64,000 bases of DNA from contig CAZSIF010000006.1 in the NCBI GenBank assembly GCA_964607155.1, positions 25,048 through 89,047 on the forward strand. The letters are read 5' to 3'. Made by a program: the position numbers and the translations under genes. A model generated the notes under the pieces. That model worked only from the letters and a program-made list of their open reading frames with translations, was not told the DNA's origin and made no database searches. This document shows positions 4,837 through 51,626 of this stretch, one piece after another. Every line of letters starts with the position of its first letter. The stretch's first letter is position 1. This stretch comes from an uncultured Oscillospiraceae bacterium (GTDB lineage Bacteria > Bacillota > Clostridia > Christensenellales > CAG-314).

Positions 4837-7800
4837 ATGAGAAAAATAACAACTATACTTTTGACCGTTCTATTGGTCGTTTGCATGGCGGCTTGTTTGA
4901 GTGCATGCAAGAAAACGGAAGAAAAGCTGTTATCTTTGGACGAGCAGATAGCGGCAATCAACACCTCTATCAACGAGCTTAAAACGATTGACGAGCAAAT
5001 AAAGCAGTCCATAGCCGAGTTGGAAGCCAAAGCCAACAGCACGGAGGAGCGAATTGAAGGCATCGACGAGGTTATTGCTGAATTAAAGGCAAAGGATGCC
5101 GAACTTGAGAGTAGAATTGCCGCTCTTGAAAGTGCAGCCAAAGCATTGACGGATAGGGTTAGCAAAAACGAAGAAGATATTACCGATATTAACGGCAGTG
5201 TTGACGAGATTCTTAAACGTTTGGAGACTATCGACGCGTTAAATAAAGCGTTGCAAACACGAATCGACTGTTTGGAAGGCAAACACAGTTGGGATTTTGA
5301 TGACGAAGGTTCGGGGTATTATTGGGCAAATGGACTTGTTTCTTGTCACGCAAATCTCAAGTGCGCCAACTGCAGCCAGTATATACGCATTGAAAGTCAG
5401 GAAATTACCTACGATAACTATGTTTTAACGGCAACCTTCCCCGAAAGCACCCATGTGCCGGCAAAAACGTTTGATATTACCGATGTAAGGGGTTTTGATA
5501 ATGATACCGTGCGCGCCGTAGTTAAATTGATGCTTAGCAGTGGCACGGCGGAAAGTGCAGAAGTAAGGCTGACGCTTTCAGCAGTTCCGCTTTATGAAAA
5601 TGTTTTCCAAGTAATTAGTGAAACGATTCGCGATTATGACGGCTTTGGCTATAATGGTCCTCAAAACGGCGCGGTTAAGCTTACGATTGCCGGCGTGGAA
5701 ACTATTAGCGATGAGGCATTTAGGCAAAGCGATTGGCTTGGCGAGTTGGTTATCGGCGAAGGAGTGAAAACAATCGGAACCAATGCGTTTAATTGGTGTA
5801 CTTATTTAAAGAGTGTTTCGATAGCGAATGATCTGGAAACAATCGGGAGATATGCATTTGAATGTTGTACCGGGCTTACAAACGTTAGTTTGGACGAAAA
5901 ATTGCGGGAAATCGGCGAATATGCATTTAATACATGCGAATCGTTGAAAACATTAAATATACCAAATGGCGTAACTTCTATTGGCGATTATGCGTTCAAC
6001 GAGTGTCGCTTGCTTGAAAGCATAACCTTTGGCAGTGGTATTACGGAGTGGAATTGTTGGCTGGATAATTGCAGTGAACTTACAAGTATCACGTTTACCG
6101 CTCCATTGGAGGTTGTTGAACCGCATGCATTGGATTTGTTTGAAACACGCAACATTACGCTAACGCTTGTCGACGGGCAAATGGATTTTGAACAATCTGT
6201 CGATAATTGGGTTGCCAAAGAAGATCAGTTGTTTGAAGTTAACGGTGACAATGTATTTTGCGAACACGAATTTAAGTCGATTGTGCTTTCCGTTTCGATT
6301 GACGCAACCAAAATGAATGCGGATGAGATTCAGTTTGCGATAGAACAAGCTGTTATGACCGGCAAGCTCAATATAAGCATTGCCCTTGCATCAACAGCCT
6401 CCACCGACGAATTTGCCGCAATACGAACCGCCCTTGCCGGAACGAAGGATTTAATAACGCTTTCGATAAGTGGCGCAACGGAAATACCGCAAGACGCGTT
6501 TAGGCAACTAAGTAACCTTAAACGTATCACTATCGGTGACGGAGTGACAAGTATTGGGCGGTATGCTTTTGCAAACTGTGATGCGTTAGTGGACGTACAT
6601 ATAGGCAAAAACGTAAGTACCATTGGCGAATTTGCTTTTGATAATTGTGGCGAATTGCAAAGCGTAAACATTCCGTTGAGTGTAACGAGTATTGGAGCTT
6701 CTGCATTTAACACATTTGTTTTGGCTGACGTGTATTATGCCGGCGAGTTGGAAAATTGGATAAAAATCCTCTTTGAAACTGCGTATTCTAATCCATGCTC
6801 AAGCGGTGCAAAACTGTATTTTAACGGAAAGCTTGTGGAGCGTGTGACCATTTCCGACGTGACAAACGTGCCGGACAGTTTGTTTTACGGCTGCGCGTCG
6901 CTTACGAGCGTTACTATCGAAGAGGGCGTTACAAGCATAGGCGTTGGCGCATTCGGTATTTGCACGTCGCTTGCGCAAATAACCATTCCGTCAAGCGTAA
7001 CGCATATTGGCGACGGTGCATTTGAGTGCACTGCAATTACGGATATTACGTTATCCGATAATGTAACGGAGTTGGGAGCAAACGTATTTAATGGTTGCGA
7101 TAAGTTGGAAAGCGTTGTTATTGGCAGCGGCGTTACGGATTTGGTATGTGTACAGCTTTTCCGTTTCTGTTATAGTTTGCAAAACATCACGTTTAAGGCG
7201 CCGATAACACGCATGTTGGTAAATACATTTATGGATTGCAATACGGAAAACATAACGCTTACATTTGCCAAGGGACAAAAGGAACTTGTGCAAGTCTATG
7301 AGGGGGACTGGGAAGCAGGCGAGCAAATGTTTGGCGGCGGTAACGAGTTTTGCGGATTAACTTTCGACAGAATTAATGTTCCTATCGTGTTGGACGCATC
7401 GGGAATGACCGCTGACGAATTGGAAGATGCATTGGCGCAAGTGGTACAAAACGGCAGTGAGGATATAACGGTGCAGTTTGATTCTACCACTACCGAGCAG
7501 CACTGGGGCGCAATCGTTAATGCCTTGTATTATGTCAACAGTGGCAGCATAAAGCTTACAATAGACGGTGTGTGGACTATTAGTGGCGCATTTTATAATT
7601 GTGAAGCAATAAAAAGCTTGACCATTGAGAACGTTTCGACTATTGCATGGGGAACTGTTAGGGAGTGCCACCACCTTAATAGCATAACGATTGGTAAAGG
7701 CGTTACTAAAATTGATAACCAAGCCTTTTTACGGTGCAGTCAACTTACAACTGTTATTTTTGAGGGCACGATAGAGGAATGGAACGCTATCGAAAAGGGT

Positions 7801-7869
7801 GATAGTTGGTTGGACGGCTGTGCTGGATATGAAGTTGTTTGCAGTGATGGATCTGTTAGCATTTGGTAA
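4837..7869 (+). CDS. Surface lipoprotein with an N-terminal coiled coil and BspA-type leucine-rich repeats
   Basis: Signal peptide with lipobox LSAC, then an approximately 110-aa heptad-rich segment. Repeated IGxxAFxxCxxLxx(V/I)xIPxxV units are arranged as two duplicated modules. AAGGAG RBS 7 nt upstream. Confidence 0.8.
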   Translation: MRKITTILLTVLLVVCMAACLSACKKTEEKLLSLDEQIAAINTSINELKTIDEQIKQSIAELEAKANSTEERIEGIDEVIAELKAKDAELESRIAALESAAKALTDRVSKNEEDITDINGSVDEILKRLETIDALNKALQTRIDCLEGKHSWDFDDEGSGYYWANGLVSCHANLKCANCSQYIRIESQEITYDNYVLTATFPESTHVPAKTFDITDVRGFDNDTVRAVVKLMLSSGTAESAEVRLTLSAVPLYENVFQVISETIRDYDGFGYNGPQNGAVKLTIAGVETISDEAFRQSDWLGELVIGEGVKTIGTNAFNWCTYLKSVSIANDLETIGRYAFECCTGLTNVSLDEKLREIGEYAFNTCESLKTLNIPNGVTSIGDYAFNECRLLESITFGSGITEWNCWLDNCSELTSITFTAPLEVVEPHALDLFETRNITLTLVDGQMDFEQSVDNWVAKEDQLFEVNGDNVFCEHEFKSIVLSVSIDATKMNADEIQFAIEQAVMTGKLNISIALASTASTDEFAAIRTALAGTKDLITLSISGATEIPQDAFRQLSNLKRITIGDGVTSIGRYAFANCDALVDVHIGKNVSTIGEFAFDNCGELQSVNIPLSVTSIGASAFNTFVLADVYYAGELENWIKILFETAYSNPCSSGAKLYFNGKLVERVTISDVTNVPDSLFYGCASLTSVTIEEGVTSIGVGAFGICTSLAQITIPSSVTHIGDGAFECTAITDITLSDNVTELGANVFNGCDKLESVVIGSGVTDLVCVQLFRFCYSLQNITFKAPITRMLVNTFMDCNTENITLTFAKGQKELVQVYEGDWEAGEQMFGGGNEFCGLTFDRINVPIVLDASGMTADELEDALAQVVQNGSEDITVQFDSTTTEQHWGAIVNALYYVNSGSIKLTIDGVWTISGAFYNCEAIKSLTIENVSTIAWGTVRECHHLNSITIGKGVTKIDNQAFLRCSQLTTVIFEGTIEEWNAIEKGDSWLDGCAGYEVVCSDGSVSIW

Positions 7870-15124: not shown

Positions 15125-15527
15125 TTTTGCCCTCCGTGCGATAGCGGCGTATATGGTTTGTCGCTATCCAACACCGCATATTTTACTACATTTTGCTAAT
15201 GGCTGTCAATAAGCTGAAAACAAAACGCCTGCCGTTTTTTTTTGAATCGTAAATTCTCAAAGTAAATGCAACAGTGCAATTTAGAGTTGCATTTAGTCTG
15301 GTAAAGATTTTGCGGCGCAACGGCGGAACTTACGGCGGCGTTTGGCTTGAAAAACATTTTGTGCTAACTCGGCTTGCGGTTTGCTTGGCATTACGCATAT
15401 GCCAAAGGAATTGCGTTTGGCTATCCTTGCGATAGCGTACTGCCATTTGCCGCAGATGTCATATGACAACCTTTGAGTGTGATTGAGTGCGATAAATGCA
15501 AAACGCTTGTATAAGTCGTGTTTACGT

Positions 15528-15556
15528 TTGACTGTTTTTGCGGATGGTAGTATAAT
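15528..15556 (+). promoter_or_regulatory. Sigma-A type promoter for nagB
   Basis: TTGACT-17 nt-TATAAT, about 110 nt upstream of the nagB ATG. Confidence 0.55.
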
Positions 15557-15666
15557 ATATGCAGAAGCTGTGTGGCGTGCCGTAAAAGTTGTTGCGGTTG
15601 CATGATGCCAAGCGAATGCTTGTGGCGCAGGCTTGCGCCATACTATTACAAAAGGACGGTTTGAAC

Positions 15667-16401
15667 ATGAAAGTTATTGTTGTTAACGACTACGATGAGA
15701 TGAGTCGCAAGGCTGCCGAGATAGTGGCGGAGGTTGTGGATAAAAACGCCCAACCCGTATTGGGACTTGCAACGGGCAGCACGCCCATAGGCATGTACAA
15801 GTTGCTTGCCGATTTTTGCAGCGAGCGCAAGCTGTCGTTTGCCAAGGCACGCACGGTAAATTTGGACGAGTACGTTGGGCTGGATGCTCAAAGCGACCAA
15901 AGTTACGTTTACTTTATGGCAAAAAACTTTTTTGATAACGTGGATATAGATAAGCAAAACACCAATTTACCTAACGGCAAGGCGGCAAATTTGCAGGAAG
16001 AGTGCGATAGATACACTCGTCTTGTGGAAAGTATGCCGCAGGACGTGCAGGTATTGGGGCTTGGCAGCAACGGACATATCGGTTTTAACGAGCCTAACAC
16101 GGATTTTGATAGCCACACGCACGTTGTAAAGCTTGCCGAAAGTACCATCAGGGATAACTCGCGCTTGTTCGAGGACGAAAGCCTTGTGCCCCGTCAAGCA
16201 ATCACGATGGGCATTGCCGATATAATGCAAGCAAAAAAAATATTGATGCTTGCAAGCGGTGCCAATAAAGCCAAGGCGGTTGCGGCAATGGTGGAAGGGG
16301 ATGTTACCACAAGCGTGCCTGCAAGCGTTTTGCAAAACCATCCCGATTGCACCGTGATTGTTGATAGGCAAGCTGCCGCATTGCTTAAACACCACGCATA
16401 A
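15667..16401 (+). CDS. nagB: Glucosamine-6-phosphate deaminase
   Basis: MKVIVVNDYDEMSRKAAEIV...LGLATGSTP.GMY...GLGSNGHIGFNEP is the canonical NagB pattern. I chose the ATG at 15667, preceded by AAAGGA. Confidence 0.9.
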   Translation: MKVIVVNDYDEMSRKAAEIVAEVVDKNAQPVLGLATGSTPIGMYKLLADFCSERKLSFAKARTVNLDEYVGLDAQSDQSYVYFMAKNFFDNVDIDKQNTNLPNGKAANLQEECDRYTRLVESMPQDVQVLGLGSNGHIGFNEPNTDFDSHTHVVKLAESTIRDNSRLFEDESLVPRQAITMGIADIMQAKKILMLASGANKAKAVAAMVEGDVTTSVPASVLQNHPDCTVIVDRQAAALLKHHA

Positions 16402-16455
16402 TCCATTTTGAACAACATTTTTTGTAAATAAAAATAACCCTTCGTGCGTTTTGTT

Positions 16456-16496
16456 GATGTGAATCCTAAAAGTATCCAACTTTTGGGGTGCATATC
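16456..16496 (+). repeat. Copy A of a recurrent hairpin motif (GATGTGAATCC-stem-loop-stem-GGTGCATATC)
   Basis: Sequence GATGTGAATCCTAAAAGTATCCAACTTTTGGGGTGCATATC. It is nearly identical in its flanks and stem to the copy at 52667-52710. Confidence 0.7.
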
Positions 16497-16528
16497 GTTT
16501 TGTTGCACGGAGGGTTTTTGTTTTGCGG

Positions 16529-17110
16529 TTATATGGTTTTTACAAGCTCCGCCGCCTGATACTCTAAGCGTTGCTTTAACTCTGTATCGGTAATCAGCGA
16601 GGTGTTTGCGTGCACGTTATGCACGGAGCAGACGATAGCTTTTTTTAACAACTCTAAGCCGATATCGCAATCGCTACGAACGTATTCGTATAGATAGGGC
16701 AGGGCATTTTCTGCACAAGAGATTGCTTTTTGGCATAGCTGCATTAGTTCCAAAGGCACAAGCGCGGCTCGGTGGTACTGTTTTTGTAGCTCCGCGTTGC
16801 GTGTGTGTCGTTGCTCGTCGGTGGTTTTGGGCAGGCGCATTGCCTGTAAAATACGCTCGAATGCTTGCGCGTCCTCATCGGCAAGCTCGTAGGCTTTTGT
16901 GCGGCACCTAAAAAGCATTTTGCGACAGCCTTCAAGTTGCGTTGAATACTCAAAGTCGTTGCCGTATTTTTTTAGCGTAACGCTTGCGGACATTTCCACA
17001 AGCGAGCAAGCGTGTGCCGCAACCACGGCTAAGGTACAGCCTCCGCCCGGAGTAGGTTTGTCGGACGCCAAGACGTCGTCGTATTGTCGTAGTGTTTGTT
17101 GACTGAACAT
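16529..17110 (-). CDS. Cyclodeaminase/cyclohydrolase family protein (FtcD C-domain-like)
   Basis: N-terminus LASDKPTPGGGCTLAVVAAHACSLVEMSASVTL is typical of the formiminotetrahydrofolate cyclodeaminase / methenyl-THF cyclohydrolase family. Confidence 0.75.
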   Translation of the reverse strand: MFSQQTLRQYDDVLASDKPTPGGGCTLAVVAAHACSLVEMSASVTLKKYGNDFEYSTQLEGCRKMLFRCRTKAYELADEDAQAFERILQAMRLPKTTDEQRHTRNAELQKQYHRAALVPLELMQLCQKAISCAENALPYLYEYVRSDCDIGLELLKKAIVCSVHNVHANTSLITDTELKQRLEYQAAELVKTI

Positions 17111-17357
17111 TTTTTTTTCTCCGATTTGTGTGCCGCCCGAGCGGCTTTTATTGTGTCGCTTGTTGCAAAAGCAACTTCGGCTTAATGTGCGTTAATGCGT
17201 AGGCAGTTGCCATAGGCACACACTTTTAAGCCGTGCTTATTCGACTGTTTTGTATTTTAGCATATTTTGTTGTTTTTTACAAGAAAAAATTATTTTAAAT
17301 TGCAAGTGTACGCTATGCGTTTTTAGATGTTTGTTTTGCAAACTTAACTGCCATTGC

Positions 17358-17386
17358 TTGACTTTTTGTCAGGGGGGGGGTATAAT
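17358..17386 (+). promoter_or_regulatory. Consensus sigma-A promoter with a G9 homopolymer filling the 3' end of the spacer
   Basis: TTGACT (17358-17363), a 17-nt spacer TTTTGTCAGGGGGGGGG (G9 at 17372-17380), then TATAAT (17381-17386). It lies 38 nt upstream of the ATG of the TIR-LRR gene, whose RBS is AGAGAGG. Confidence 0.6.
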
Positions 17387-17424
17387 ATCGTTAATATAAT
17401 ACAATACAAAAGAGAGGTCTGCGA

Positions 17425-20400
17425 ATGGAACGATACGTCTGCAAAGTGTGCGGCGAACAGCTCGAACAAAAGATAGGCGACTTTTACGTCTGCAAATACT
17501 GTGGCTCACGTTGGAAGGTGGAAAAGGAAGTAACTCGTCTGCCCGTGTTGGATAACGCTTGGCAAGCCTTGCGCAACGGAGATTTCGACGTTGCGGAAGA
17601 GCTGTTTGAGGATGTCATCAACACGGATAACGCCAATCACGAAGCCTACTGGGGCAGGGCATTAGCCGCTGCAAGCATAATTTATGTAAACGACCTCAAC
17701 GAAAATAAAAAAGTACCCACTTGTAATAATATTTCGGAACAGGTGTTTGCCGATGGCACGTTTGTCAAAAAGGCAATCGAGCTTGCCCCTGCCGAGATAG
17801 CAGATAGCTACAAGCAACAAGCCGAGTACATAGATAAGGTTCGTATCGAGTGGTTAAACAAAGCCAGTAAAGAGCCTGCTTACGACGTGTTTATTAGCTA
17901 CAAGGATAGCGACAAGGAACACGGCATCGAACGCACTCAGGATAGTTATGACGCACAAGAACTGTACACCGAGCTTGTTCGCCGTGGATATAACGTGTTT
18001 TATAGCCGCGTTAGCTTGCGAGATAAGCTTTCCGAGCAGTACGAGCCGTACATATATAACGCCATCAAAACCGCAAAGGTAATGATAGTGCTTGCGGAAA
18101 AGCCTGAGTATATAACCGCAACGTGGGTAAAAAACGAGTGGTCACGCTTTCGTAATAGAATAGAGTGCGGTGAAAAGGACTCACGCAGCCTTGTGTTTGT
18201 TTACAAAAACCTTGACTTGTCGGATATACCTGCCGCTTTGCGTTCACGCCAGTGCTTGAACATGGCGGAAATGACATTTTTGCCTTCGCTAATATCTCAC
18301 ATCGAAAAGGTCATCGAAAGCACACGCAAAAACCAAGGTGTGGAAAAGATTGCAATAACAGGCGGCAAGATTGCCAAAAAGTCTACGGAGATATCTCAAA
18401 ACCAAATAACGGTTAGAGAGATAGGCAGCACGGTTGCACAAACGTCCCTTAACGATGCGCAAACGCTAAGCCTTGTTATGTCATATTTGGAAACAAATGA
18501 CTTTACTCATGCACAAAAATGTTTGGACGGCTTGTTGTTATCGGATTCGGAAAACGGTGAGTTTTTGCTTGCAAAACTGTTGCTTGAAAAACGCTGTTCT
18601 ACTATAAAAGCATTAATGACGGAGCTGTCAAATTTTGATAAAAGCGACTTTTCATTCATTGAAAGTATTATTAGTCGCTTGCCCAAAAAGGAAGCGAAAA
18701 AATTGCTTGCCGCAATGTATGAGCGCGCAAATGAAGTAAACGATATACTTGCGGCTCGCATATATGAAGTGATTTTGCCTTTTGCGTGCACAAATCGCGA
18801 TAAATTTATTCTTAACGCGGTGGACAATTGTATCGAAAATGGCAAGTTAAAAAGCTTCAAGCAGTTGCTTTTAACGCTGGATAAAAACGATACGGATAAG
18901 TATATTGAGTTGAATTTGCGCTTTGTTGAGCATAACAAGCCAAAGGACGATGAATATGCTGCCTGTATTGAGTGTTTACAAGCAGCTTTGGATGTGGACG
19001 AGGGTAATATTGTTGCTCTTGATGCGCTTTTGGAATTTGGCATTTGCAAAAATGATAAGTCGTCGGAGGAATTGTACGCTTTATTTGAAAGATTGTTGTC
19101 CTATTCCTCAGATGTTAACAAGGTAGTTGCAGAGTGGCTGCCTAAATTGCAAGCTTTGTATAATGACAATAATTGTGCGACTTGTATACTATGCTTTAGG
19201 CAAATGCTTAAATACTACCAAGCGGATCTATCAAATTTAGACGAAGCGATTTTGAATTTCGCAGATTTGTTATTGTCGGAATACAATTTCGCGGACGCCA
19301 ATGTTTTATATGACATCGTATTGGCTCATTCCACGCAATCACCGAGGGCATATTTGGGCATTGCGTTATCTAAAATTGGCGCGCCCGACATAAACAAATT
19401 GGGAATTAATTGTAGCAAGATAACCGACCTGCCGGAGTTCAGTAAGTACTTGTCGCTTTTGGATACTAAACAACGCAAGCAAATTTTGGCAAATATCCAA
19501 CGTCAACAAACAGATTTATCTCAACGAACCATTGCTGACGAGCAGTGTGCGTCGGAAAGGTATTCCGACTATGTGCATGCACGCAAAAATAGTTTTTTTG
19601 CTGCAAGAAAAGGTATAATAATTCGCAGCATAATATTTTCTGTAATTTGGCTTGTATTTTGCGGTGCAATAAACCTTTTAAGTAACCGCGAACTTTGGAC
19701 TTGGTGGCTGATACTTATTGCAGTCATCGTTGGCTTATTGTTTGCTTTTATTATTTCATATCGCACAGCACGTCGAATTGTACTATTTCCGTGGTTGTTA
19801 GGAGATGTTGCTATCGTATATGCTTTTAGGGGTATTTCGCCATCTGATTTGAGAGCCATAGTGTATGGTGCGTTGGGAGTGTATTTCTTTTTTACATTCA
19901 TTGGTATCTGTATGCCTACTGATGCTGATAGGATATTTGGAACTCGAAAAAGAATCCATTTGACGGAAGAAATAGCAAATAGATATATTGACCAAGATGG
20001 CCTTATGGAAGTTAAGTGGAGTGCTATCTCGAAACTTGACATTGATGGCAACGTAAAAGAAATCTGTAATGATTTATTTGAAAACTGCTGTGATTTACGC
20101 AAGGTATATTTTTGTGGAACTGCCGATAATTGGAACAAGATAAAGTTCAAATCCGGCAAGTCAAATCCGTTGCGTTGGGGCGCAGCTTTGTACGTTAAAG
20201 GTAAACGAGTTACTAACCTCAAACTGTCAGATGTGTCAGATTATGCATTTTACGGTTGTGGCTCGCTTACCGATGTTTGTTTGACTGAAGCTGTTAAGCA
20301 TATTGGTAAGGAAAGCTTTTACGGTTGTCGCTCGCTTGAAAATATTTCTATTGATTGCTCGTCGTTAACTATCGGAGAAGATGCGTTTGCATATTGCGAA

Positions 20401-20640
20401 AAGCTTGCGCAAGTATCGTTTGGCGCAAATGTAAAGCGTATTGGTTCAAGAATGTTTTATGGGTGTAGCTCGCTTTTGACCATTCGATACGATGGCAAGC
20501 AAAAGGATTGGGTTAAGCTACCCAAAAAGGCAGACTGGAATATTGGCACGGGCGGCTACAAGGTATACTGTACGGACGGAGTGTTGGACAAAAGTGGCAA
20601 TTGCATCGAGCAGTACGAAAGTGGTTACTTTCTGAAATAA
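17425..20640 (+). CDS. Multidomain membrane protein: zinc ribbon, TPR-like helices, TIR domain, helical repeats, 3-4 TM helices, BspA-type LRR
   Basis: Domains by residue: CxxC..CxxC at aa 6-26; a TIR-like block at aa ~152-290 (YDVFISYKDSD...VMIVLAEKPEYITATWVKNEWSRF); hydrophobic helices at aa ~731-830; LRR units (IGxxxFYGCxSL) at aa ~860-1050, ending in GYKVYCTDG as in the lipoprotein at 4837. Confidence 0.75.
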   Translation: MERYVCKVCGEQLEQKIGDFYVCKYCGSRWKVEKEVTRLPVLDNAWQALRNGDFDVAEELFEDVINTDNANHEAYWGRALAAASIIYVNDLNENKKVPTCNNISEQVFADGTFVKKAIELAPAEIADSYKQQAEYIDKVRIEWLNKASKEPAYDVFISYKDSDKEHGIERTQDSYDAQELYTELVRRGYNVFYSRVSLRDKLSEQYEPYIYNAIKTAKVMIVLAEKPEYITATWVKNEWSRFRNRIECGEKDSRSLVFVYKNLDLSDIPAALRSRQCLNMAEMTFLPSLISHIEKVIESTRKNQGVEKIAITGGKIAKKSTEISQNQITVREIGSTVAQTSLNDAQTLSLVMSYLETNDFTHAQKCLDGLLLSDSENGEFLLAKLLLEKRCSTIKALMTELSNFDKSDFSFIESIISRLPKKEAKKLLAAMYERANEVNDILAARIYEVILPFACTNRDKFILNAVDNCIENGKLKSFKQLLLTLDKNDTDKYIELNLRFVEHNKPKDDEYAACIECLQAALDVDEGNIVALDALLEFGICKNDKSSEELYALFERLLSYSSDVNKVVAEWLPKLQALYNDNNCATCILCFRQMLKYYQADLSNLDEAILNFADLLLSEYNFADANVLYDIVLAHSTQSPRAYLGIALSKIGAPDINKLGINCSKITDLPEFSKYLSLLDTKQRKQILANIQRQQTDLSQRTIADEQCASERYSDYVHARKNSFFAARKGIIIRSIIFSVIWLVFCGAINLLSNRELWTWWLILIAVIVGLLFAFIISYRTARRIVLFPWLLGDVAIVYAFRGISPSDLRAIVYGALGVYFFFTFIGICMPTDADRIFGTRKRIHLTEEIANRYIDQDGLMEVKWSAISKLDIDGNVKEICNDLFENCCDLRKVYFCGTADNWNKIKFKSGKSNPLRWGAALYVKGKRVTNLKLSDVSDYAFYGCGSLTDVCLTEAVKHIGKESFYGCRSLENISIDCSSLTIGEDAFAYCEKLAQVSFGANVKRIGSRMFYGCSSLLTIRYDGKQKDWVKLPKKADWNIGTGGYKVYCTDGVLDKSGNCIEQYESGYFLK

Positions 20641-20826: not shown

Positions 20827-20855
20827 TTGACAAAGTTGCGTGTAGGCTGTATAAT
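20827..20855 (+). promoter_or_regulatory. Consensus sigma-A promoter for the divIC-like gene
   Basis: TTGACA-17 nt-TATAAT, 28 nt upstream of the ATG at 20884. Confidence 0.55.
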
Positions 20856-34501: not shown

Positions 34502-34600
34502 GTGTGTGTTGTTTATGTCTAATTCTCGCTTGAAAGGAAAACTAAACAAATCCCTCCGTAAAAGTTTTTTGTTGATGTGGTGTTTTCGATTATTTGTCGT

Positions 34601-34643
34601 ATAAATAAAAACGCTATCCGATAGCCAAAAGCGTCGGATAGCG
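34601..34643 (-). terminator. Proximal intrinsic terminator of the orphan minus-strand unit
   Basis: CGCTATCCG / CGGATAGCG 9-bp perfect stem, followed on the minus strand by TTTTTATTTAT. Confidence 0.6.
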
Positions 34644-34735
34644 CAAAAGGAACGCCTAGTGGCGTTGTGTGCTAATGTTCCGACTTTGTTCCGCCAAGGT
34701 CTGTCGGCTACCAAGGCGTCTGACGAGTATGCGCG

Positions 34736-34775
34736 GTACATCTCCAAGCGTATTTGAGCTTTGGGATTTACAATG
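34736..34775 (-). repeat. Copy E of the recurrent hairpin motif (inside the candidate ncRNA)
   Basis: Minus strand reads TTGTAAATCCCAAAGCTCAAATACGCTTGGAGATGTAC. Compare copy B, GATGTGAATCCCAAAAGTTGGACGCTTTTGGAGGTGCAT. Confidence 0.6.
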
Positions 34776-34811
34776 CTACTCGTATTTGATGGCATATAAA
34801 AATATATTAGT

Positions 34812-34840
34812 ATTATAAAGCCTTGCTTGTGTCGTGTCAA
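34812..34840 (-). promoter_or_regulatory. Perfect consensus sigma-A promoter (P1) of the orphan unit
   Basis: Minus strand reads TTGACA-CGACACAAGCAAGGCTT(17)-TATAAT. Confidence 0.55.
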
Positions 34841-34891
34841 GAATATTTAGTTTATTTTATCGGAAAATAAACAAATATTTAGGATAATAGC

Positions 34892-34922
34892 ATTATACCC
34901 CCCCCCCCCCGAATATTGTCAA
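34892..34922 (-). promoter_or_regulatory. Second promoter (P2) with a G13 homopolymer in the spacer
   Basis: Minus strand reads TTGACA-ATATTC-G13-TATAAT, a 19-nt spacer. The G run abuts the -10 hexamer exactly as at 17372-17380. Confidence 0.45.
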
Positions 34923-50557: not shown

Positions 50558-51424
50558 TCATGGCTCTGTACCCCCCCCCGTTTGACGTCTAAATTGTCCC
50601 GGAGAAACGCCGTATCTGTTTTTGAAGTTTGCGCTGAATTGCGAAAGCTTTGCGTAGCCGACAAGTTGGCAAACTTCAATAACCTTTATGTCCGTACTTC
50701 TTAGCAGGTTGGCGGCATATTGCAGTTTGTAGCTTACCAAATATTGATGAGGTGTAACGCCAAAGTGCTGTTTGAACAGTCGCAGCAGCTGCATACGGCT
50801 ATAGTCCAAGCTGGCGCAAAGGTCGTCCACGTTGTACGACAAAAAATCTTTTTTATCCATCAAGCGTATCAGTCGTGCCTGAAATGTGGATTTTTGTTGA
50901 GATAACTCGTGCAAAAAATGTCCGTAAAAGCGTTGCAGCAACAGCAAAACGGCGGAGCACACCAAATCGTTGTATTTTTTGTATTGCGAGCTTGCCAGCA
51001 GGTTTAGTTGGTGAATTATTTCGTCAATTTCGTCCACGATATATGGCATCAAAGCGAGGCTTTTTTGTTTCGCTTGCACAAGCTGCTGCCAAAAATCAGG
51101 CGATATGGCATCTGCAAGTTGCTTTAAGGTTGCCTCTCTCACAGCAAGGTTAATGTAGCGTATCTGTTGACTGCGTTTTTTCAGGTAGTGTTCGTCGTCT
51201 GTGGTGGAGTAAAAAACGATATTTTTTTCGTAAACCTGTTCCGTGCCGTTGGATACGTTGCCCAATTTGCCGTCGGTAATCACGGTGAACTCCCAATAAT
51301 CGACATGTCCGTGGGGGATGGGGAAATCGAAGGTGTTAACGTGATAGGTGTACGAAATTTGCTCCATGTCGCTCATCAGTACATACGCATTACTGTTGTT
51401 AAGTGAAAAAGAATAGCGTTCCAT
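50558..51424 (-). CDS. AraC family transcriptional regulator
   Basis: C-terminal double HTH (LCASLDYSRMQLLRLFKQHFGVTPHQYL...IEVCQLVGYAKLSQFSANFKNRYGVSPGQF). I chose the ATG at 51424 after AAGGAG. It is divergent from the GH130 gene. Confidence 0.8.
   Translation of the reverse strand: MERYSFSLNNSNAYVLMSDMEQISYTYHVNTFDFPIPHGHVDYWEFTVITDGKLGNVSNGTEQVYEKNIVFYSTTDDEHYLKKRSQQIRYINLAVREATLKQLADAISPDFWQQLVQAKQKSLALMPYIVDEIDEIIHQLNLLASSQYKKYNDLVCSAVLLLLQRFYGHFLHELSQQKSTFQARLIRLMDKKDFLSYNVDDLCASLDYSRMQLLRLFKQHFGVTPHQYLVSYKLQYAANLLRSTDIKVIEVCQLVGYAKLSQFSANFKNRYGVSPGQFRRQTGGGTEP
50571..50579 (-). repeat. G9 (C9 on the plus strand) homopolymer inside the last codons of the araC-family gene
   Basis: It encodes the GGG of ...RRQTGGGTEP*. 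A length change alters only the C-terminal tail: +1 gives an approximately 25-aa extension and -1 gives a 6-aa alternative tail. Confidence 0.9.
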
Positions 51425-51626
51425 CTGTTGTTGCTCCTTATCCCGACGGCGTTGCGACAGTCGAGTTTTAGTAGGCATATTGTACGATAACAAAATCAAA
51501 ATTGCAACAATTTGACGAAAAAAGTTACAAAAAAAGATTTTTGTGTTGTATTTGGGTATAGAAAACCGAATGCCTCGTTTGATATAATTTTTTTTAGAAA
51601 GTTATTCGAGTGAGGTTGATTTCCAT

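Follow-up and report, generated by a model that had tools for sequence, protein, structure and literature searches.

A poly-G tract of strain-variable length in the promoter spacer of a TIR-LRR gene: a candidate contingency promoter in an uncultured Clostridia bacterium

Introduction

Phase variation by repeats located in promoter spacers is textbook knowledge for a few pathogens (Neisseria, Haemophilus, Treponema and Mycoplasma), and sigma-70-type promoters have their spacer optimum at 17 nt. In the window analyzed here, a stretch of 64,000 nucleotides from an uncultured gut-type Clostridia bacterium, a run of nine G residues occupies part of a 17-nt spacer upstream of a gene coding for a TIR-LRR protein. 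The question raised by this locus is whether the G tract renders the promoter prone to length changes which alter the expression of the gene, as an earlier note on this DNA had proposed in the form of a slipped-strand ON/OFF switch, or whether the tract has no such role.

Architecture of the Promoter

The putative promoter spans positions 17358 to 17386 of the + strand. Its -35 hexamer, TTGACT (17358–17363), which was read directly and also recovered by a consensus scan, is followed by a unique spacer part, TTTTGTCA (17364–17371, read directly), by the G9 homopolymer (17372–17380), which forms the variable part of the spacer, and by the -10 hexamer TATAAT (17381–17386), against which the G run abuts. 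Together, TTTTGTCA and G9 give a spacer (17364–17380) of 17 nt, and this description, already made in the earlier note, proved exact on direct reading. The -10 hexamer ends 38 nt before the ATG (17425), which is itself preceded, at a distance of 7 nt, by the RBS GAGAGG (17412–17417, read from the sequence). With a score of 11/12 in the consensus scan, this TTGACT-17-TATAAT promoter is one of the 12 sites reaching at least 11/12 with spacers of 16–19 nt in the whole window, both strands included, and the only one on the + strand of the 314-nt intergenic region, consensus matches alone not being evidence of promoter function according to the scan tool's own caveat. The promoters at 20827, 15528 and 34812, previously cited as being devoid of any tract, were borne out by the same scan, and the spacers of the tract-free promoters of the window measure 16–18 nt, save for one intragenic 19-nt match.

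It might be argued that transcription of the gene depends on a promoter other than these hexamers, or that the effect of the tract is exerted via DNA structure or a factor binding G runs and not via spacing, a view to which we assign a very low probability. A second TATAAT, at 17395–17400, could speak for another promoter, but it is devoid of a -35 element, no further strong promoter is present on the + strand of the intergenic region, and homologs of the TIR-LRR gene show this promoter type, too, at a comparable distance. Indeed, the closest homologs (L018, L019 and L011) possess plain TTGACA/TTGCAA-17-TATAAT-like promoters located 54–60 nt before the ATG, so that promoter type and approximate position are normal for the family and the tract is a lineage-specific addition. 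Spacing-independent action has a precedent in Treponema pallidum tprL, whose promoter poly-G acts without altering the -35/-10 spacing (PMC7864442), yet the two longest G runs of the window sit in two of its 12 best promoter matches, which is far beyond chance.

Two other candidates were considered at this locus and rejected. As a fallback promoter, the second TATAAT (17395–17400) has GGGGGG at the -35 position for a 17-nt spacer and no TG extension, while a G-quadruplex at G9 cannot be formed by a single run.

A Second Strain With a Shorter Tract

Divergent from the G9 promoter, an FTCD_C gene is located at 16529–17110 (- strand), and the 90% cluster of its product contains three other members (P0274, P0275 and P0276). 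One of them, P0275, which shares 96.4% amino-acid identity with the FTCD_C protein of the window, is carried by L327, a 2141-bp Logan contig from run SRR10277276. When aligned with window positions 15257–17403, L327 displays 96.4% nucleotide identity over 2136 aligned nt and, because of this identity, was taken as another strain of the same species. Its promoter reads TTGACT-TTTTGTCA-G7-TATAAT, the -35 hexamer, the unique spacer part and the -10 hexamer being the same as in the window, and its spacer is of 15 nt vs 17 nt in the window. The flanks of the tract are without any difference over 14 nt upstream and 23 nt downstream (the -10 hexamer and the following 17 nt), the length-variant form of the tract with its flanks being TTGACTTTTTGTCA-Gn-TATAATATCGTTAATA. 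Between the two strains compared, the length of the tract varies and its flanks are conserved. This outcome of the tract-length comparison, G9 vs G7 with identical flanks, lends support to the slipped-strand reading put forward in the earlier note, which is also fitted by a second promoter of the window, with a G13 tract, and by the scattered spacers found in IMG/VR contigs (see below). GCTTGA, examined as an alternative -35 for the G7 allele, matches the consensus at 1/6 positions and was rejected.

Only two indels are present in the 293-nt intergenic stretch that was compared, each of them being a loss of two nucleotides in a 9-nt homopolymer (G9 and A9, the latter at 17110–17118). Three runs of 7–8 nt (A8 and two T7, all coding) are unchanged in length between the window and L327. 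Since A8 and both T7 runs are constant and both 9-nt runs changed, the 9-nt runs are indel hot spots between the strains. In the FTCD_C gene, the A9 run (- strand, T9 on the + strand) separates the RBS GGAG from the ATG and is A7 in L327; the RBS-to-start spacing of this gene differs by 2 nt between the window strain and L327.

These lengths have to be weighed against a technical artefact, in which the tract would be real but its assembled lengths (9, 7 and 13) unreliable, making both the 17-nt spacer and the G9/G7 difference meaningless. The fact that both 9-nt homopolymers are exactly 2 nt shorter in L327 leaves some room for a platform effect, and L327 is a short, probably low-coverage contig ending beside the tract. 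However, the A8 run and the two T7 runs are equal in both assemblies within the same 2.1 kb, and a 2-nt error exceeds the usual stutter of +/-1. Furthermore, Logan drops once-seen k-mers and assembles exact 31-mers (PMC12424806), so that the G7 tract was read in its full length two or more times. Such an artefact appears very improbable to us. A chimeric join through the poly-G was also considered and rejected: the independent assembly L327 has the promoter with its G tract, a run of 9–13 nt cannot bridge k-mers of at least 21, and the synteny break with a sister species (see below) is found 35 nt or more upstream of it.

The way in which L327 ends may be informative in another respect. Its terminus is located 23 nt past the tract, and thus before the ATG of the TIR-LRR gene, and its terminal 31-mer corresponds to these 23 nt, C7 and one anchor base. 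Because Logan relies on 31-mers, L327 stops at the very point where a further tract length in the sample would make the assembly graph branch. This end position is suggestive of several tract lengths in that sample, as a hint only; the other side of the tract was passed unbranched, i.e., there is no clean two-allele bubble, and stutter arising in PCR or sequencing could break the contig in the same way.

The difference between the two strains can be explained otherwise, by a fixed strain polymorphism or by promoter decay. In such a scenario, the tract would be a hot spot undergoing rare changes, G9 and G7 would be fixed in their respective strains, and the G7 strain would have lost the expression of an accessory gene, with no bet-hedging involved. 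We regard this explanation as unlikely. It draws support from the fact that the two alleles come from two strains which are 3.6% apart, leaving time for ordinary indels. Decay, on the other hand, would be expected to affect the hexamers as well, but the strains do not differ at any of 37 flanking nt.

Long Homopolymers and a Second Poly-G Promoter in the Window

The G/C runs of the window comprise twelve G5, one G6, four C5, one G9, one C9 and one C13, with none of 7–8 nt. Three runs of at least 9 nt are thus seen vs 0.105 expected under a first-order Markov model of the window. In two of the three, the G run, read on its own strand, is directly followed by a perfect TATAAT (P ~4e-7), and both intergenic long tracts form part of the spacer of a near-perfect promoter and adjoin its -10 hexamer. 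The G9 tract is long enough for slippage and is an outlier for its genome surroundings; in T. pallidum, poly-G tracts of at least 8 nt have been shown to be mostly length-variable in vivo (PMC7864442). No other candidate for repeat-type contingency was found in the window. The local absence of runs of 7–8 nt while runs of 9–13 nt persist speaks against a fixed polymorphism or decay, as do two independent promoters in which the tract abuts a perfect -10 hexamer and accompanies a perfect or near-perfect -35 hexamer.

The second of these promoters is located on the - strand (34892–34922) and consists of TTGACA (34922–34917), ATATTC, G13 (34910–34898, C13 on the + strand) and TATAAT (34897–34892). 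Its hexamers are perfect and, its spacer being of 19 nt, it would be in a weak state, with the optimum at G11. A perfect tract-free TTGACA-17-TATAAT promoter follows 80 nt downstream, at 34840–34812 (- strand); the earlier note, which mentioned this 34812 promoter, omits the poly-G promoter lying ~80 nt upstream of it. The ~200-nt non-coding stretch after the 34812 promoter is predicted to fold well, with an MFE of -62.3 kcal/mol (z = -3.8), and its end is formed by a terminator near 34640–34605 (region 34600–34922, - strand), the whole being inside a 780-bp gap between the convergent glyQS and V-ATPase D genes. Nothing was found above the Rfam threshold, either in the whole window or downstream of the G13 promoter, there are no tRNAs in the window, and no homolog of the non-coding stretch was found in any fetched locus. 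We regard this stretch as a candidate for a new sRNA under tandem promoters, of which one may be phase-variable.

The third long tract is coding. This G9 (50571–50579, - strand, C9 on the + strand) falls on codon 307 of ORF 50558–51499, which encodes an AraC-family regulator whose HTH_18 domain ends one codon earlier, at residue 306. The protein has 313 residues, and a tract of G8 or G10 would lead to proteins of 314 and 336 residues, respectively, in which only the C-terminal tail is altered. Slippage may hence be tolerated at this site, or the C-terminal tail may be switched. Being placed where slippage is harmless, it shows that such tracts can persist without a switching role, a point in favor of the fixed polymorphism discussed above.

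Recurrence of the Design in IMG/VR Contigs

A scan of IMG/VR contigs for TTGAC-N6-12-G9-TATAAT returned five matches, all of them having a perfect TTGACA and G runs ranging from 9 to 13. A perfect TTGACA at most 13 nt upstream was present at 7 of the 101 usable sites at which at least nine G residues precede TATAAT, vs 0.4% of control positions. At the nine sites whose -35 hexamer matches at least 5/6, the spacers measure 14, 17, 17, 17, 19, 19, 19, 21 and 21 nt. Intact hexamers combined with spacers scattered about 17 nt fit the expected appearance of randomly sampled slippage-prone tracts, and they argue against a fixed polymorphism. The genes located downstream of the IMG/VR sites mostly encode signal-peptide, lipoprotein, membrane or pilin-like products. 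When length variants of four of these IMG/VR promoters were sought by means of their flanks, only the original contigs came up.

Two of the IMG/VR contigs carry homologous promoters, TTGACA-(G/A)AACATTCA-G10-TATAAT, with a 19-nt spacer (L106, 9885–9915; L109, 13061–13091). They are located 5–6 nt upstream of an ATG which opens a type IV pilin-like N-terminus, MKKHKHYQGFTIIEVVLVLAIA, and possibly represent a leaderless pilin gene under poly-G control.

The TIR-LRR Gene and its Family

The gene presumed to be under the control of the G9 promoter (17425–20640, + strand) encodes a protein of 1071 residues composed of a Zn ribbon, TPR, TIR_2, a helical region, 3–4 TM segments and a BspA-type LRR_5 region. 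The label TIR-LRR, already in use in the earlier note, is right, since TPR_16, TIR_2 and LRR_5 were found in 17425–20640, with TIR_2 at residues 155–281 and the C-terminal BspA-type LRR_5 at residues 935–1022. The zinc ribbon is of the form CxxC...CxxC. C6, C9, C23 and C26 are invariant in the family alignment, and the ATG at 17425 is supported as the start by the invariance of C6 and C9. Within the TIR domain, the family alignment shows an invariant glutamate, E238, which is one of many invariant residues of the N-terminal module, W234, K236, N237 and W239 being others. Hydrophobicity analysis indicated three strong segments and one weak segment at ~727–831, and the topology of the protein, and with it the surface exposure taken as probable in the earlier note, is accordingly ambiguous, the TM count being odd or even depending on the weak segment. 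Compared with Toll-like receptors, in which an LRR ectodomain, a TM segment and a cytosolic TIR domain follow each other, the domain order is reversed. The gene appears to be monocistronic because a separate perfect promoter, at 20827, is present downstream of its stop codon.

The 90% cluster of the TIR-LRR protein has a single member, and its next relative is 51% identical. The family is very large: among 8000 candidates scored, 1683 proteins fall at E <= 1e-10, mostly from gut, rumen or Clostridia metagenomes, and the relatives bearing a name are "Clostridia bacterium" MAGs. While the N-terminal module of ~700 residues (Zn ribbon, TPR, TIR and helical region) is conserved, the C-termini are swappable: LRR_5, InlB B-repeat/Flg_new and other types occur, and some members have none. 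Across the 473 kb of 80 metagenomic loci that carry family members, no G/C run of at least 9 nt was found, nor was one found in the promoter of any homolog.

With regard to function, no curated defence system (PADLOC, Thoeris) was matched above cut-off by the TIR-LRR protein, the weak TIR-level matches being ThcB4 (19 bits vs a cut-off of 220) and PDC-S66 (E = 4e-4), and no defence gene stood above noise among the neighbors of the gene. No NCBIfam family was matched above cut-off, and literature searches returned no report of this TIR-LRR protein family. A second large BspA-type LRR_5 protein is encoded in the window at 4837–7869 (+ strand; 1010 residues, five LRR_5 stretches, E = 5e-102), and no G/C tract is present upstream of its gene.

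Genomic Context and Lineage

On the other side of the intergenic region, the divergent promoter of the FTCD_C gene, TTGTAA-17-TAAAAT (17254–17282, - strand), is kept in a sister species and lies at the edge of conserved synteny. This sister species, at ~85% nucleotide identity, is the source of P0274 and P0276 (89.6% amino-acid identity). Synteny with it extends from 11570 to ~17300, and similarity ends between ~17300 and 17335. Beside FTCD_C, the sister species has hrcA-grpE instead of the TIR-LRR gene; past the break, the window contains the G9 promoter, the TIR-LRR gene, small ORFs and genes for an acyltransferase, Sua5 and RpiB, followed by the V-ATPase operon. The G9 locus is absent from the sister-species contigs L095–L104 and L328.

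Further relatives were reached through GlyRS, which shares 84% identity with its counterpart in Candidatus Fimimonas merdipullorum and 91% with metagenomic sequences. In the latter relatives (L091–L094, 91% identity, ~46 kb), neither a G/C run of at least 6 nt nor a homolog of the G13 intergenic region was found. Exact-protein look-ups (TIR-LRR protein, P0001–P0003, FTCD_C and V-ATPase D) returned no record, and a scan of genome contigs with the FTCD_C protein gave distant matches only. The contigs related by GlyRS carry SpoIIID. The NCBI taxonomy copy files Candidatus Fimimonas under Myxococcota/Myxococcaceae, and this lineage entry looks wrong, as the genomes closest by GlyRS have SpoIIID and Firmicute-type promoters and RBS, and as relatives are labelled Clostridia or Acutalibacteraceae.

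The location of the gene in lineage-specific DNA at a synteny break, as is typical of dispensable genes, speaks for a fixed polymorphism. Against the slippage reading, the tract is absent from the 80 homologous loci, from the GlyRS relatives and from the sister species, and has no deeper conservation.

Proposed Mechanism and Significance

Collectively, the promoter anatomy, the outlier status of the tract, its different lengths in two strains in which the flanks are the same, and the recurrence of the design in unrelated metagenomic contigs lead us to favor, as fairly probable, a contingency promoter of the porA / tp0126 type, in which slippage shifts the G count and thereby the spacer, with G9 as the optimal state, G8 and G10 as reduced states and G7 as the off state. 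The G9 run would be a hypermutable tract in a housekeeping-sigma (sigma-70/SigA-type) promoter, the hexamers being presumably functional, of a monocistronic TIR-TM-LRR gene. Replication slippage would add or remove G residues, and any gain or loss between the two hexamers would alter both the distance separating them and their relative rotation. The window genome, with G9 and the optimal 17-nt spacer, would be in a state of high expression. With G8 or G10, i.e., spacers of 16 and 18 nt, expression would be reduced, and with G7, the 15-nt state assembled for L327, the promoter would be essentially off. If tract length does alter expression in this way and if switching is frequent and reversible, the TIR-LRR gene would be a contingency locus, expressed to different degrees in different cells or lineages with no regulator involved. 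From the ON/OFF switch of the earlier note, the slippage part is thus retained but the strict ON/OFF part is not, as a change of +/-1 G is expected to grade expression in the manner of a "volume control."

A broader and doubtful extension is that the Fimimonas-related Clostridia lineage may run a "phasome" of independent poly-G-spacer promoters, with at least two of them in 64 kb, one serving the TIR-LRR gene, whose product would be a bacterial counterpart of the Toll-like-receptor architecture, and the other a structured non-coding RNA, stochastic TIR expression being a form of bet-hedging. If true, this would be bet-hedging on a costly TIR sensor or effector (e.g., a phage- or host-sensing suicide or signalling module), which has not yet been described for TIR proteins or for gut Firmicutes. 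Apart from this extension, the G9/G7 difference, the second locus nearby and the recurrence of the design suggest that strains and cells of commensal Firmicutes may owe part of their heterogeneity to homopolymer promoters, which have been overlooked in this role, and that the large uncharacterised family of TIR-TM-variable-ectodomain proteins may need turning on and off in these bacteria. The idea of a poly-G promoter is directly testable in existing metagenomic reads.

Comparison With Known Systems

Within the Clostridia, phase-variable transcription of envelope and signalling genes is known from Clostridioides difficile (PMC11868660). In contrast to the slippage proposed in the window, C. 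difficile cwpV, flgB, cmrRST and pdcB/C rely on invertible promoters and site-specific inversion, and the G9 promoter involves no inverted repeats or recombinase, unlike these switches. Literature searches returned no poly-G promoter switch in gut Clostridia, invertible promoters being all that the searches and a review (PMC11868660) gave. The statement that the mechanism is not commonly described for Clostridia is consistent with these searches, though absence is weak evidence.

Promoters in which the homopolymer is not a poly-G provide a second comparison. Poly-A is reportedly found in the promoter spacer of Mycoplasma hyorhinis vlp, according to work by Yogev, Citti and colleagues. As proposed here, the length of a core-promoter homopolymer sets the expression of variable surface proteins in vlp and in Neisseria opc, with several loci switching independently. 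For opc, the poly-C overlaps the -35 element, so that another mechanism is probably at work (PMC7864442). Both differ from the window promoter by having A or C instead of G, and the Mollicutes are only distantly related to the Clostridia.

The closest parallels are the poly-G promoters of Neisseria meningitidis porA, on which the original work is said to be that of van der Ende et al. in 1995, and of T. pallidum tp0126. In both, the poly-G sits between the -35 element and the -10 element and transcription is strongest at 17 nt (PMC7864442). Like the window promoter, porA has a G homopolymer within a sigma-70-type spacer; its expression is highest at 17 nt and lost upon shortening of the spacer, and its target is an envelope protein (PMC7864442). 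Unlike porA, the window promoter belongs to an uncultured Clostridia, its tract abuts the -10 hexamer, its target is a TIR-TM-LRR protein instead of a porin, and its switching, with the effect on expression, is proposed from sequence. Similarly, tp0126, coding for an OmpW homolog, is one among several genomic poly-G tracts, which parallels the multiple tracts of the window, but T. pallidum is a spirochete pathogen in which variability was demonstrated by fragment-length analysis and reporters, vs the two-strain comparison used here. Compared with these systems, the mechanism is already known, and what is new is the lineage, the class of the target gene and a hint of several poly-G promoters per genome.
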